From positions 96,001 to 160,000 of IMG/VR virus record IMGVR_UViG_3300001528_000425: 64,000 bases of DNA, one strand, 5' to 3'. Shown here piece after piece: positions 2,073 to 55,771 of this stretch (position 1 is the first letter of the stretch; each line of letters opens with the position of its first letter). The notes under the pieces were generated by a model. That model ran no database searches. It saw nothing but the letters and a program-made list of their open reading frames with translations, and had not been told where the DNA came from. The position numbers and the translations under genes were made by a program. The DNA comes from a virus (taxonomy: Duplodnaviria > Caudoviricetes).

Positions 2073-2162
2073 CTAGGTTTTACTTGGTATTCCAGATACG
2101 CACTTCAGCTTCACGGCGGCGATCGCAATCATAGCGATCAGGATCAGGTTGATCTTTTTCAT
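2073..2162 (-). CDS. 29-aa hydrophobic micropeptide MKKINLILIAMIAIAAVKLKCVSGIPSKT
   Basis: AAGGAG SD, ATG at 2162, followed by a terminator. Confidence 0.65.
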   Translation of the reverse strand: MKKINLILIAMIAIAAVKLKCVSGIPSKT

Positions 2163-2193: not shown

Positions 2194-2607
2194 TGAATGA
2201 CTTAACTCGAACCTAGACTAACGGAAGGTCCAATACTGATCCAGATGGATCAACTCTCATATTCTATCGACCTACGTAATCGAATATAGAGGTAGCTTCG
2301 TACGTGTCTCCGTAAGCAAATAATCTCCCAACCAATTATATAGGTTGGATGAGGATTATTTACCTACTCGGACACGTACGAGTTTGGTGCTACCAAAATT
2401 ACTGCGACAGCTTAATAACTGTCGCGCCACTGCCGGTGCGTTAACACCGTATATTGGTTGTAACTTGGTAACAAGATGATCGAAAGTTGAATTTGTGTAC
2501 ATAACACTCCTCCAGCTCAGTACCCTCTATGGCGTGCTACCGCCATAGAGGGTATGATCTTCTTTTACAATGGTAATTGCTTTCAGGACGAACAGTTAAG
2601 TCATTCA
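2194..2607 (-). ncRNA. ~414-nt structured RNA element, copy 1, with embedded ORF
   Basis: 14-bp terminal inverted repeat (2194-2207/2594-2607), nested hairpins with G-U pairs on the minus strand, promoter at 2619-2635, homologous copy at 54833-55227. Confidence 0.75.
2356..2502 (-). CDS. 48-aa peptide MYTNSTFDHLVTKLQPIYGVNAPAVARQLLSCRSNFGSTKLVRVRVGK inside the structured RNA
   Basis: GGAGGAG SD; 26 of 47 residues identical to the ORF at 54987-55130. Confidence 0.8.
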   Translation of the reverse strand: MYTNSTFDHLVTKLQPIYGVNAPAVARQLLSCRSNFGSTKLVRVRVGK

Positions 2608-2618
2608 TTAACTTATGT

Positions 2619-2635
2619 TCATCCTAGTAATGTAT
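2619..2635 (-). promoter_or_regulatory. Early promoter ATACATTAC-N5-TGA
   Basis: Consensus match about 12 nt upstream of the RNA terminal stem. Confidence 0.7.
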
Positions 2636-2672
2636 ACATGAACGAATTCGATCGACATCTTTCGGATATCAA

Positions 2673-9230: not shown

Positions 9231-9305
9231 AACCTCGTGGTGTAATGGTGTGCACAACTGGTTTTGATCCAGTTAGTCTAAGTTCGAATCTTAGCGAGGT
9301 TGCCA
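9231..9305 (+). tRNA. tRNA-Gln (anticodon TTG)
   Basis: Acceptor stem AACCTCG/CGAGGTT, anticodon arm AACTGG-TTTTGAT-CCAGTT, GTTCGAATC T-loop, encoded CCA. Confidence 0.93.
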
Positions 9306-47479: not shown

Positions 47480-48231
47480 ATGCAGAGTATGATCTTAACA
47501 GGCAGCATGCTGGCCTCGACTCCTCTTTCTCTCGTACAAGACGGAGATAGAGTGAAATTGGCATGGACTGGTGGAAAGATCGCATCTTTTACTCTCCAGC
47601 ATCAACAGGAGATACGGTTCATACCGTTCCTGTCAACTTCGATACAGATGCGATCATCGTAGATGTATCTCTTTGGAAACGAATACAAGACAGCGAATCA
47701 TCCGCTGTTCAATATATCAAAACAAGTCCAGATATCACCATCGGCGACACGGCTGTAACGATCGATATGACTGGATTTCCTGTAGGTGAATATCTGGTAC
47801 GTGTTGTCGTTGACAATTTGTCACTGGAAGATGCCACGAAACATATCGTTCCGATCGTAGATCCCATCGTGGATCAGCAAGTCGTTGATCCAGATTACGG
47901 ATATTGTCGCTACCTCGATGATCTATATCCAATTATGAATTTCGCTCAACGATTTAAAAACGTTGAGAAGATCGTGTTGGATGTGGTGAGCGGGACCTCA
48001 ACGGTATCCGGAAACATATGTATCATCCCTATCGTAAATGGAGTGGACAGAGAGCCAGTTATTGTACCTGTAACAGGTACCTTGACCAGCATACAGCTTT
48101 CTATTTCATTCGATTTTGGGACTTTGTCGTTAAAACGAGATACTGAGAACTCTTTGGACACATTGAAAGGTGATACCACGATAACCGCGATCGTTCTTGG
48201 TGTCACATTGGAGACGAGCTATCATGCGTGA
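47480..48231 (+). pseudogene. Fibre adaptor protein, cassette A, with a 1-nt frameshift near 47603
   Basis: The two frames together align with the intact paralogue 50414-51136 (FTLQH-x-TGDTVH vs FDLHHTASDTVH). Confidence 0.7.
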
Positions 48232-49927
48232 TTCACTACTTCTAGCCGCACAGGATGAGTCTTGCGTCCTTTGTGTGACGCCATATCTGGGCGGCTCGTG
48301 GTGGAGTCGCTTACGTCCACCGATGCCGCGAAACTTCAGCGAAGGATATCAATGGAATGCTCTACAGACAGCCATGTATTCGTCGCTACCCTGGAAGAAC
48401 GACCATCACTTTACGTTTAACTTCACGGTTGCCGAAGATTTCGAAAACGGCAGCTACTGGATCATGTACCAGAGCAACGGTAGGATTGTGTTCTCTCTAG
48501 ACAAAGACGCTCGCGGCAGTCGGTTCGTATTTGGAAGTTACGCATTCAGCAACGGAGTGTTTGTTTATACTCCGTTCGCAGCTTCGCTAGCCGGGAGACA
48601 TGAAGTGATTTTGGCGGTCGTTGGAGATACGTTGAGAATCACGGTGGATGGTGTGTCGTACGAGCAGAGCGGCGAACGTGTGGAGTCATCGAGCTACAAC
48701 CGGGTGGTGACAACCTCAGCCCCGGTGACGCTTCACGCGGTTTCCCTGACCGACGATTCGACGGAAACGGATATCTGGCAAGCGACCTACTCCGATCTAT
48801 ACGACACGTCGAATCCGTGGCCATCTGCCGTTCCGCGCAACTTCGCGGAGGAACCTGAAACATGGAGAGATGTACCGTTAATCACTTCTGCGGTTGGATA
48901 TGATGACTGCGAATTTTCCATCCATTATCGGCTAGACGGTTATCTGGATGGTTCTACCATCACTCAGTTATTTTATCACATCTCTCACAATGGCAGTGTC
49001 AACATTGCATTTGCAGGAGATGGTACTGGTGGTAACTACAGTTATATCCAGTTGACTGACACGGACAGTCTTGTGATTCCTTTAGACCGGATTCGACAAC
49101 TTGGAGAGCATACGATCCGCGTTCGCCGCATTGGATCAACTGTTACCATCGAGTTCGATGATGAGGTTGCTACAACCTCATCTGGAATGGATAAAGTAGC
49201 AATCTATTCAATGAATGCTCCGACTTCCAATTTCAACGGTGTTATTTTCGAGATGTACTGGAAAAATCTGACCACAGGACGAATAGTCTGGAGCTATCCG
49301 ACTGAAGCAGAGCGTGTACGTCTTATTACGAAGTCGAATGTTCGTACCGATAGGAGTGCTTTCGAACCGGTCGATGACAACTACGTTTACTACGTAGATA
49401 CCAAATTGGATCTGCGAGGTTATATCGGTGATCTGTCTATGGTTGCCAATGTGCACATCGATCAGGAAAGCGCCACTCGTGCTGCAAATCCAGTGGTGCA
49501 ATATCACCTCATCACTCAAGGAGGCCCGACCACATCCAATACCCTGACCGTGTTCGCTATGTATCTGACTCGTTACCCAGATCGCAGCATAGGTTACAAA
49601 CTCTTGATCAGCGATGGATCGAAGTGGTTCGAAATTGAGAAGATTTACTCTGATGTACCTCTCGATCAGATACGAACTGTCGGAGTGGTGCTGATCAAAG
49701 CTACAAGAGAACAACGTTGGTTCGTGAATGGTAGTTATATCGGCTCTGTATTCGTACCGGCAGATTGGAATGCGTTCAATGGTTCAGATAATGCAGTACA
49801 GAATGTGCGCATTGGTCCTCATATCTTGAGCACGAGTTATTGGCCTACAAAGTTACCATCGGTCTTAAGCGCTTGTGTATTTACACGTGCGCTGAGTGAT
49901 GCTGAGATGATAGCGATCCACGGTTAG
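48224..49927 (+). CDS. Receptor-binding protein with LamG/ConA-like modules, cassette A
   Basis: Beta-rich; duplicated PRNF module; C-terminal FTRALSDAEM. Confidence 0.65.
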   Translation: MRDSLLLAAQDESCVLCVTPYLGGSWWSRLRPPMPRNFSEGYQWNALQTAMYSSLPWKNDHHFTFNFTVAEDFENGSYWIMYQSNGRIVFSLDKDARGSRFVFGSYAFSNGVFVYTPFAASLAGRHEVILAVVGDTLRITVDGVSYEQSGERVESSSYNRVVTTSAPVTLHAVSLTDDSTETDIWQATYSDLYDTSNPWPSAVPRNFAEEPETWRDVPLITSAVGYDDCEFSIHYRLDGYLDGSTITQLFYHISHNGSVNIAFAGDGTGGNYSYIQLTDTDSLVIPLDRIRQLGEHTIRVRRIGSTVTIEFDDEVATTSSGMDKVAIYSMNAPTSNFNGVIFEMYWKNLTTGRIVWSYPTEAERVRLITKSNVRTDRSAFEPVDDNYVYYVDTKLDLRGYIGDLSMVANVHIDQESATRAANPVVQYHLITQGGPTTSNTLTVFAMYLTRYPDRSIGYKLLISDGSKWFEIEKIYSDVPLDQIRTVGVVLIKATREQRWFVNGSYIGSVFVPADWNAFNGSDNAVQNVRIGPHILSTSYWPTKLPSVLSACVFTRALSDAEMIAIHG

Positions 49928-53856: not shown

Positions 53857-53953
53857 GCATCAATTTCATACCGTCCTTGAATGGAAGGTGTTCAAGGATG
53901 ATACCGGTAGCAGTATGCCGGATAACCCATCTCTAAATGAAAAGCAAAACCAA

Positions 53954-54739
53954 ATGAAGCTCACCAAACTGTTCCTCGCACTCACCCTGACACTCATCAC
54001 CGGCGTTACCTTCGCCACCACTCTTCGTGATGTCCGTGACGCCAAAGTTTCCGACATGGCCGCGGTCGTATCGACCTGGACCAATGAACTCGGTACGGCT
54101 ACCGTCATGGACAAGATCGAGTACTCTGCTGCGCAGGGTCTGGTCTATCTTCGTTCCAACGAGAACGCCACCTTCGCCGAAGCCCGCTCCAAAGTGATGG
54201 CGAAAGCCAAAGAACTTGGCATCGAAAAGGAAATGGCCGCCAGCAGCTACATGTACGGTATCGTCCATCCTTGGTGGGTCGGCGAAACCCGCCCTGCTCT
54301 GCTGCAGGAAACTCTTGCTTACGCTGAAGCCAATCCTCCGGCCGATGGCGCCGGTGCTTATGCCGAAATCGGCCGTATCTATGCATTTGTGTTGAAGGAT
54401 TATGTGAAGGGTCTGGCGGCGTTCCAGAAGGGCAATTTCCAGAGTGATACTCTCCGTTGTTACATGGAAATAGGAGATACCGCCAATGCCGTCAAGTACT
54501 ACTATGAACTTGCCGAATCTGGCAAAATCAGCGCCGGTGCTGCTGCTGAATACTTTCCCACTGTGTGGGCGGCTCAGGCGAAGGGATTCAAGACTGCCGA
54601 AGAGCGTGATGCCGCGAAGTTCCGTCTCAGCAAGTTGGTTGATCAGTATACCAGTAAGCTCTACTCCGATGCCAATGTGAAGCCGGAGAATTCGCCGTGG
54701 CGCAAAGTGATCACGCTGTGGACGGCCAGCTCGAAGTAA
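53954..54739 (+). CDS. Exported helical (TPR-like) protein
   Basis: Signal peptide MKLTKLFLALTLTLITGVTFA; TPR-like helices. Confidence 0.7.
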   Translation: MKLTKLFLALTLTLITGVTFATTLRDVRDAKVSDMAAVVSTWTNELGTATVMDKIEYSAAQGLVYLRSNENATFAEARSKVMAKAKELGIEKEMAASSYMYGIVHPWWVGETRPALLQETLAYAEANPPADGAGAYAEIGRIYAFVLKDYVKGLAAFQKGNFQSDTLRCYMEIGDTANAVKYYYELAESGKISAGAAAEYFPTVWAAQAKGFKTAEERDAAKFRLSKLVDQYTSKLYSDANVKPENSPWRKVITLWTASSK

Positions 54740-54777
54740 CCTAAGGTTATCTTCAACAAAAAATAAAAGTGAATCAG

Positions 54778-54813
54778 GTAAGGTAACTAGGCATCAACGC
54801 CTAGTTACCTTAC
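54778..54813. terminator. Bidirectional terminator
   Basis: 15-bp inverted repeat with A/T flanks. Confidence 0.8.
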
Positions 54814-54832
54814 TGCTCTTTTGTAAGTGTTA

Positions 54833-55227
54833 TCATGATCCGATCCCATTACGATGCAGAACAGGTAATCTAATAAAATCAACTACAATATCACACCCTG
54901 TTCTATCGTTGTGCGATATCGTTCGACTTGAACAGTCTGTAAAGATCTACACCCTCATACCTTTCTATAGGTAGAGAGCGTGATCTTTAAACTGTTACAC
55001 GTCTAATCGTTGTAGTGCCGAAGTTCCTACGTGCAAGAACAAGTTGTCTTGCGATCGCAGGAGCCTGAGCACCATAACGAGGCCGAAGCAAGTCGACCAA
55101 CTCTTGGAACGAAAGATTTGTATAGTCCATGGACCACCTCTTCTACTTAGGGATAGGGAAGGAGTGTCAGCTCCTTCCCTATCCCGCATTCCTGGTAATT
55201 GCTTTCAAACGACCGATCGGATCATGA
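54833..55227 (-). ncRNA. ~395-nt structured RNA element, copy 2, with embedded ORF
   Basis: 13-bp terminal inverted repeat (54833-54845/55215-55227), TGAAAGCAATTACCA, same layout as 2194-2607. Confidence 0.75.
54987..55130 (-). CDS. 47-aa peptide MDYTNLSFQELVDLLRPRYGAQAPAIARQLVLARRNFGTTTIRRVTV
   Basis: GAGGT SD; paralogue of 2356-2502. Confidence 0.8.
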   Translation of the reverse strand: MDYTNLSFQELVDLLRPRYGAQAPAIARQLVLARRNFGTTTIRRVTV

Positions 55228-55235
55228 ATAAAATT

Positions 55236-55490
55236 TCATTCAAGAACCAATTGGCCGGACTGATAAGCATCGCGGATCTCAGCCATCTGTTTGGCGCGAT
55301 CCTGCCAGAGTTTGGATTCCTTATCAGCTTCTTCCGGCGACACTCCCTTAACCGGAACCAAAGCGACGGACAGACTGTGTAAATTACACATCTCGATCGC
55401 TTTCTGGAGAAGCAGACCGACGTCGTACCCCTTGTCCTGGAATTGTTTCAGGATACGTTTCACTCTGGCACTCGAAGACAGTTTGCTCAT
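55236..55490 (-). CDS. Hypothetical early protein
   Basis: AAGGAGG SD; promoter at 55561-55577. Confidence 0.75.
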   Translation of the reverse strand: MSKLSSSARVKRILKQFQDKGYDVGLLLQKAIEMCNLHSLSVALVPVKGVSPEEADKESKLWQDRAKQMAEIRDAYQSGQLVLE

Positions 55491-55560: not shown

Positions 55561-55577
55561 ACACCAATGTAATGTAT
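55561..55577 (-). promoter_or_regulatory. Early promoter ATACATTAC-N5-TGT
   Basis: Consensus match. Confidence 0.65.
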
Positions 55578-55771
55578 GCGTGAAGAATGTTGATCGACAC
55601 CCTTCGATTTAGTGACATCAAGGTAACCATACAGGGAATAATTAAAATGATCTGAATGATATCAAAACATAAGGAAATACTCGTATCATTTTGGAGATAT
55701 TTCGCTTCATGTTGAAACGTTATGGATCTTTAAATTACTTCAATTAAATCAAAAAGAATAAGAGAATGATC

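Follow-up and report, generated by a model that had tools for sequence, protein, structure and literature searches.

A narrowly distributed family of structured RNAs, each enclosing a conserved micro-gene, in phiKZ-like jumbo phages

We describe a narrowly distributed new family of phage RNAs that are structured on the sense strand, each built around a conserved micro-gene and matching no catalogued fold or protein. We are close to certain that the unit represents a genuine family of conserved, structured RNAs that also code for protein. The reading of its role that we favor, to which we give a rough probability of 0.45 from sequence comparison, is a cis-acting fold, one that makes the unit an armoured, closed-loop early mRNA module. 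The DNA analysed here is a stretch of 64,000 nucleotides (the window, whose positions we use throughout unless another sequence is named) from a complete genome of 235,559 bp with direct terminal repeats. This genome is phiKZ-like, its virion proteins being 25-29% identical to those of phiKZ-like jumbo phages. Two members of the family, copy 1 and copy 2, lie in the window.

Copy 2 occupies positions 54833-55227 on the minus strand (395 nt, from the 5' strand of its closing stem through the 3' strand); all of the features that follow are on this strand. The closing stem, P1, is a perfect 13-bp helix in which the 13 nt at 55215-55227 pair with their exact complement, the 13 nt at 54833-54845. 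Inside it, the junction J1/2 (55186-55214) holds GGUCGU, then the motif UGAAAGCAAUUACC at 55207-55194 and then an A-rich spacer, and leads into P2 (55150-55185), a perfect 15-bp hairpin with a 6-nt loop. The ribosome-binding site, identified from sequence as GAGGUGG at 55134-55140, lies downstream of a conserved CURAGYU that trails P2, and is followed by the ORF of a 47-aa micro-protein (54987-55130, stop codon included), which is supported by its reading frame, its third-position changes and its dN/dS. Across the last codons and the stop runs P3 (54923-55003), a long imperfect hairpin whose loop opens with a conserved CCUAUA. Beyond P3 lies P4 (54885-54922), a 12-bp hairpin with a 14-nt loop. 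Within that loop, UAGAACAGG (54897-54905) is the predicted 5' strand of a pseudoknot with CCUGUUCUG (54857-54865), a pairing that is as good in 42 of 5000 shuffles. The elements listed in an initial annotation of this DNA (terminal stem, GGUCGU, motif, 15-bp hairpin, Shine-Dalgarno sequence and 47-aa ORF) are all present, on the minus strand. The whole 395 nt fold at -173 kcal/mol, compared with -108.5 +/- 6.0 kcal/mol for dinucleotide shuffles (z = -10.8). Copy 1 (2194-2607, minus strand, 414 nt) has its P1 at 2607-2594 with 2207-2194, a single-stranded 13-mer at 2584-2572, the P2 hairpin at 2554-2521, an ORF of 48 aa at 2502-2356 and the P3 hairpin at 2381-2297, and its fold reaches z = -9.8 against shuffles.

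Searching the complete genome by tblastn with the two micro-proteins as queries gives four copies, all on the minus strand, at genome positions 39.1 kb (copy A), 48.9 kb (copy B), 98.4 kb (copy 1) and 151.1 kb (copy 2). The initial annotation had called the unit at 54833-55227 a second copy; the paralogy stands, but the number two does not, since each genome carries four members. A profile of the four proteins retrieves one 238-kb IMG/VR contig (G001, the sister phage below), likewise with four copies (L121-L124). Among 1.84 billion representative proteins, HMMER finds only four clusters of the family, all of 47 aa; one is the protein of copy A and the other three trace to four assembled metagenomic contigs (L126-L129). 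The one other match at E <= 0.001 in this search, a repeat protein of 294 aa, is unrelated. With a covariance model of the 5' domain, each of the two genomes shows exactly four strong matches (E from 1e-13 to 4e-26), with the remainder at E of 4e-4 or worse, and hence no ORF-less copies. Across the family the unit is 346-421 nt long. Two more distant relatives (G002 and G003, 46% and 41% identical in a marker protein) have neither the protein nor the RNA, and the GenBank phage collection yields no match to two family members by blastn or tblastn. The query itself was the sole match in a word-indexed protein search, a scan of metagenome contigs found no relative, and a 14-mer scan of IMG/VR returned chance matches only. 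One contig with a double 14-mer match (L038) was rejected as a family member, being a repeated coding segment in an unrelated contig.

The paralogs are only about 50-60% identical, and therefore old. Within the sister phage, L121 and its genome-mate L122 are 69% identical, while the P2 of L121 is almost exactly that of copy B in the other phage. These similarities suggest old duplications with some exchange among copies.

Support for the fold comes from the way its outer helices have changed. P1 is present in 12 of 12 copies as a stem of 11-17 bp whose sequence differs by lineage, and P2 is throughout the family a perfect hairpin of 14-17 bp directly ahead of the ribosome-binding site. In an alignment of 11 sequences, P1 and P2 together are 93% paired and 22 of their 25 pairs have changed on both sides, values matched in none of 500 shuffles; sliding the partner strand by 1-3 columns lowers the pairing to 30-48%. 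All of the 11 P1 pairs covary across the family, and double compensatory changes are found in 11 of the 14 aligned pairs of P2. The compensatory stems proposed from two copies are thereby borne out by covariation statistics and extended to 11-12 copies. The two whole-unit folds and the aligned stems all beat their shuffled controls, and the similarity between copies extends beyond the ORF.

We can also ask which molecule these helices belong to. The P1 alignment holds 12 G-U cells and one A-C cell. Between the close pair L122 and L126, P1 has changed five times and each time pairing was kept through G-U, and the sense strand folds better than the antisense strand by 2-33 kcal/mol in 12 of 12 copies. 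From the G-U bias, the G-U-keeping changes and the better sense fold, it follows that the helices belong to RNA of the ORF strand; the G-U pairs and the sense-strand advantage rule out a DNA cruciform or transposon ends as the meaning of the stems. Part of P1 is nevertheless conserved in sequence, because its innermost four pairs, which in copy 2 (55215-55218 with 54842-54845) form the palindrome GATC on both strands, recur in copy B, L122 and L127, making four lineages in all, where they are flanked by conserved GUCG and YCG junction bases.

Two smaller observations concern the same region. Between the near-identical copies L124 (1612-1744, minus strand) and L128 (1408-1530), the P2 stem is unaltered and its loop is exactly inverted (CAGTAA against TTACTG). 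This looks like a small hairpin-mediated inversion, and it implies that the loop sequence of P2 is free to vary. In the flanks (which include window positions 2608-2640 and 55228-55260 and those of L121 and L122), the 5' strand of P1 has an alternative hairpin partner in the 20-30 nt upstream of the unit in 6 of 8 lineages. Its z values run from about -0.5 to -4.0, it reaches 14 bp in L121, and it is missing in L124 and L127; it might assist co-transcriptional folding or act as a switch.

P3 is a helix of 30-45 bp to which the final 8-11 codons, the stop codon and 3' UTR sequence contribute. Pairing of the codons just after NFG with downstream sequence, which had been noticed in copies 1 and 2, is this helix, and it proves to be real and universal in the family. 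Because its bulges lie at different places in different copies, P3 escapes methods that work on alignment columns, and RNAalifold on MAFFT alignments does not recover it. We therefore paired the coding 5' strand of each of eight lineages with its own and with foreign 3' UTR strands. The cognate pairings average -37.3 kcal/mol and the non-cognate ones -20.6 +/- 5.0 kcal/mol, and the cognate partner is the best in all eight rows. The loop of P3 always starts with CCUAUA or a near variant.

The possible pseudoknot of the initial annotation, AGAACAGG in the loop with CCUGUUCU downstream, also holds up: the P4 loop of copy 2 pairs with a stretch 32 nt further on, and four other lineages pair at the same place with different sequences. 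These counterparts lie 24-31 nt from the 3' end and comprise 10 bp in copy B, 8 bp in L122 and L126, 8 bp in L124, L128 and L129, and 8 bp, one of them G-U, in L127. With 8-10 pairs, sequences that are unrelated in four lineages and a shuffle frequency of 0.001-0.008 per copy, comparison of the sequences shows a predicted H-type pseudoknot at the 3' hairpin loop in most lineages. Copy A and L121 have no 3' pseudoknot domain, and copy 1 has two plain hairpins at this place with no significant loop pairing. Because it is missing from two lineages and weak in copy 1, the pseudoknot domain is accessory.

The ORF enclosed by these helices behaves, by comparison of its copies, as a true gene under purifying selection. 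Nucleotide differences pile up at third codon positions (for example, 19/12/34 for the three positions between copy 1 and copy 2), and dN/dS is 0.14 and 0.15 in two close intact pairs. For L123 the ratio is 0.46. This copy (around 2522-2650 of the sister contig, G001:C1) is about 126 nt shorter than its intact counterpart L127, having lost P3, the stop codon and part of P4, and its frame continues through P1; its ratio fits either a decaying copy or an assembly variant. The proteins of the paralogs are 47-60% identical, share ten invariant positions that are mainly hydrophobic, and are small, basic and soluble-looking with no hydrophobic span. Within the first 38 or so codons, RNAalifold finds no helix conserved across the family. 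A hairpin over the ARQL codons, proposed earlier as common to both copies, is indeed present in copies 1 and 2 but in no other copy, and is not a family feature. The micro-protein has nothing below E = 0.025 in Pfam, with nothing near the curated cut-offs, nothing below E = 0.05 in PHROGs, and no usable match in the ESM Atlas. AlphaFold2 models it as a single long helix with a pLDDT of 74, which holds too little information for a fold search.

Several unpaired elements of the RNA have been conserved. The 13-mer GAAAGCAAUUACC at 55206-55194 has its only other exact copy in the window at 2584-2572 (as GAAAGCAATTACC it occurs exactly twice, once per copy), and three of the four copies in the genome have it without a mismatch, even though the surrounding helices have fully diverged. 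Right after P1 the family has G/A-GUCG-Y, and the other persistent unpaired elements are an A-rich run resembling UUCAAAUG, the CURAGYU after P2, the CCUAUA loop of P3 and a YUCG or UUGG immediately ahead of the closing strand. Across the copies we find no conserved pairing among the junctions, nor any that would link the 3' tail to the 5' junction or to the ribosome-binding site; pairing of the ribosome-binding site with a pseudoknot strand is confined to copy 2.

The surroundings of the units bear on when they would be expressed. Upstream of copy 2, in the same operon, is a gene for 84 aa (55236-55490, minus strand) whose stop codon is 8 nt ahead of P1; an ortholog of this gene lies in front of the L127 copy as well. 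Like copy 2, copies A and B begin a short distance (7-11 nt for the three) past the stop codon of a small upstream gene. Ahead of the 84-aa gene, the sequence CATACATTAC (55569-55578, minus strand) resembles a phiKZ-type early promoter, for which the consensus is TATATTAC (PMC7058600). Copy 1 and all copies of the sister phage have a phiKZ-type promoter-like TATACATTAC, TATATATTAC or near variant 13-25 nt before P1, which makes these units the opening cistron of a transcript that is presumably early. It is only from the promoter-like motif that we infer an early timing for the unit. Just past copy 2 is a two-way terminator hairpin (54777-54814, 16 bp with T-runs on both sides), which is shared, ending both the operon of the unit and a convergent gene for 283 aa at 53888-54739. 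Downstream of copy 1, the window encodes a 29-aa hydrophobic peptide (2073-2162, minus strand) whose start, MKK and a hydrophobic run, resembles those of a 67-aa membrane protein after L121 and of a longer ORF after L122; the peptide may have arisen by shortening of a gene of this kind. The single phage-encoded tRNA found is a tRNA-Gln with anticodon TTG (9231-9305, plus strand).

How could such a fold serve the gene that it encloses? If it acts in cis, P1 would free the folding of the unit from the surrounding early transcript, and may flag the unit for double-strand-specific processing. Host RNases would be held off on the 5' side by P1 and P2 and on the 3' side by P3 and the pseudoknot, while the open junction would offer a landing or enhancer site for ribosomes. 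P3 would have to melt for termination, which would couple translation to the state of the 3' domain. Early in infection, the gene would thus yield a small basic protein. Stems processed by RNase III bracket units in long transcripts elsewhere, as in rRNA operons, T7 early mRNA and lambda sib, and the covarying P1 in 12 of 12 copies is a long-range bracketing helix of this kind. Here too a terminal helix would delimit a unit in a polycistronic early transcript, with stable 3' hairpins then protecting the product. Unlike in those cases, what is bracketed is a micro-gene that comes with further conserved helices and a pseudoknot; P1, a putative cleavage site, has only 11-17 bp, fewer than classical RNase III sites, and the complete genome contains no RNase III gene. 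Other features also count against action in cis. The pseudoknot domain is accessory, the predicted accessibility of the ribosome-binding site differs between copies with no conserved sequestering partner, and the 13-nt motif and the invariant CCUAUA loop, kept amid diverged helices, suggest a specific binding partner.

Protection alone does not explain the conserved single-stranded motifs, and so a reading in which RNA and protein work together, or in trans, stays alive. The fold would then be the scaffold of an RNA-protein particle or a dual-function RNA: the micro-protein would bind its own RNA during synthesis, and the complex or the motif would act in trans on a host or phage target, in takeover or in counter-defence. 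We consider this possible, though doubtful. It would account for the conservation of GGUCGY, the 13-mer, CURAGYU and the CCUAUA loop while all helices diverged, and it agrees with the small, basic protein, with the presence of RNA and ORF together in every copy and with four co-diverging RNA/protein pairs per genome. But the 13-nt motif, which as a conserved single-stranded stretch would be the candidate seed of a dual-function small RNA, has no complementary target in either phage genome, neither Pfam nor PHROGs recognises an RNA-binding domain in the protein, and its modelled structure, just one helix, has moderate confidence. S. aureus RNAIII/hld and E. coli SgrS/SgrT are dual-function coding regulatory RNAs, and in RNAIII a long-range pairing joins the 5' and 3' parts. 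Like them, the unit is a multi-helix RNA of several hundred nucleotides with a small-protein gene. It differs from them in that the ORF is the best conserved part and central in the fold, in having four paralogs per genome, and in showing no sequence or Rfam relationship to them. A more far-reaching version, which we hold to be rather unlikely, is that the unit is a previously unknown phage module, an ornate RNA encoding its own binding protein. Both would form an early particle that acts in trans, via the single-stranded motifs, on host RNA metabolism, translation or RNA-sensing defence, and the module would spread as a discrete cassette.

The initial annotation had also taken the unit to be self-contained and possibly mobile. 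Self-contained it is: P1 closes every copy, and at the site of copy A the 11 nt, 346-nt unit and 8 nt of the present genome correspond to a 45-nt spacer in the sister phage, so that the difference between presence and absence matches the unit to within about 10 nt. Mobility fares less well, and we regard as improbable a selfish cassette that copies itself to new early intergenic sites, with the RNA fold or closing stem serving its movement. In its favor, besides the fit at copy A and the duplication and exchange that L121 suggests, each phage has two occupied sites, out of four, that stand empty in the other: the sister phage has no counterpart of copies A and B at its orthologous sites, and the present genome has none of L121 and L124. 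The other two sites are stably syntenic, however (copy 1 with L122, copy 2 with L123 and L127), and the two or three remaining non-shared sites fall in larger presence/absence blocks with neighbouring small genes. The terminal stems have another sequence in every copy and include G-U pairs, which marks them as RNA helices rather than the conserved recognition ends of a transposon, and a protein of 47 aa is too small for a transposase. The flanks hold no target-site duplication, the complete genome has no match to the reverse transcriptase family PF00078 (control genomes do match), and no transposase, reverse transcriptase or target duplication is linked to the unit. A DNA transposon or MITE is rejected on the same grounds, its terminal repeats differing by lineage and tolerating G-U, with no duplication in the flanks.

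The early region around copy B (47867-49305 of the complete genome against 138224-138588 of the sister contig) is highly variable in its own right. Genes for 45 aa and 103 aa near copy B are also absent from the sister phage, and both phages retain a gene for a small transmembrane protein just upstream. Morons and the T4-type promoter-early stem-loop (PeSL) modules are small early-gene cassettes of the hyperplastic regions of phage genomes. The present units resemble them as tiny early ORFs that have their own promoter or hairpins and that come and go at intergenic sites. They differ in that the flanking repeats pair as RNA and are not conserved in sequence, and in keeping an elaborate internal fold and a conserved protein.

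Membership of a known class of structured RNA (group I or II intron, tmRNA, retron ncRNA, ROOL or GOLLD) is very improbable, for although a size of about 350-420 nt, a closing stem, a pseudoknot and an internal ORF recall such RNAs, no Rfam family matches at its gathering score, nothing meaningful appears at E <= 10, and the ORF, which is conserved at the protein level, comes with a ribosome-binding site and an AUG of its own. The Rfam search of the window at gathering score, with the intron, tmRNA and large-RNA families included, gave no relevant match. For a group I intron in particular, no Rfam covariance match is found (in the window at gathering score, in both copies at E <= 10), the upstream genes stop 7-11 nt before P1 and leave no exons to join, and in the sister phage, where the unit is absent, the gene orthologous to the one before copy A has the same end point. 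Jumbo-phage group I introns, found for instance in the RNA and DNA polymerase genes of phiKZ-like phages, are similar in length, in their ornate pseudoknotted fold and in the type of genome, but the unit is intergenic and carries a ribosome-binding site and a conserved 47-aa gene. As for a tmRNA, ARAGORN finds none, reporting one tRNA-Gln alone in the window, and the ORF starts from a ribosome-binding site and AUG. The closing stem followed by G/A-GUCG is retron-like, a resemblance only, and a retron ncRNA is rejected by the absence of a reverse transcriptase from the complete genome. A type I toxin-antitoxin system is rejected since the protein is basic with no hydrophobic span and the antisense strand folds worse than the sense strand. 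Two small RNAs are known from phiKZ-like phages, sRNA005 of 201phi2-1 and the phiKZ sRNA upstream of gp182, which are 5'UTR-derived, non-coding and shorter than 250 nt; such jumbo-phage sRNAs are made by premature termination upstream of a tail gene (PMC11512511). The present family shares with them a conserved RNA structure tied to phage promoters in phiKZ-like phages, and differs in its length of about 400 nt, in its coding capacity, in the terminal stem that closes it and in having four copies.

To our knowledge, folds proven by covariation are rare among large natural RNAs, and hardly any such RNA has a conserved protein-coding gene inside it. In the present case, helices and codons are both under selection within the same 400 nt, one hairpin being built out of the last part of the coding sequence. 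The family therefore offers a tractable case for asking how phage mRNA is insulated, stabilised or closed end to end inside polycistronic early transcripts, whether small phage proteins cooperate with the RNA that encodes them, and how such modules are gained and lost in the genomes of giant phages. If the fold does stabilise expression, it would also provide a compact natural scaffold for the design of synthetic mRNA in bacteria.
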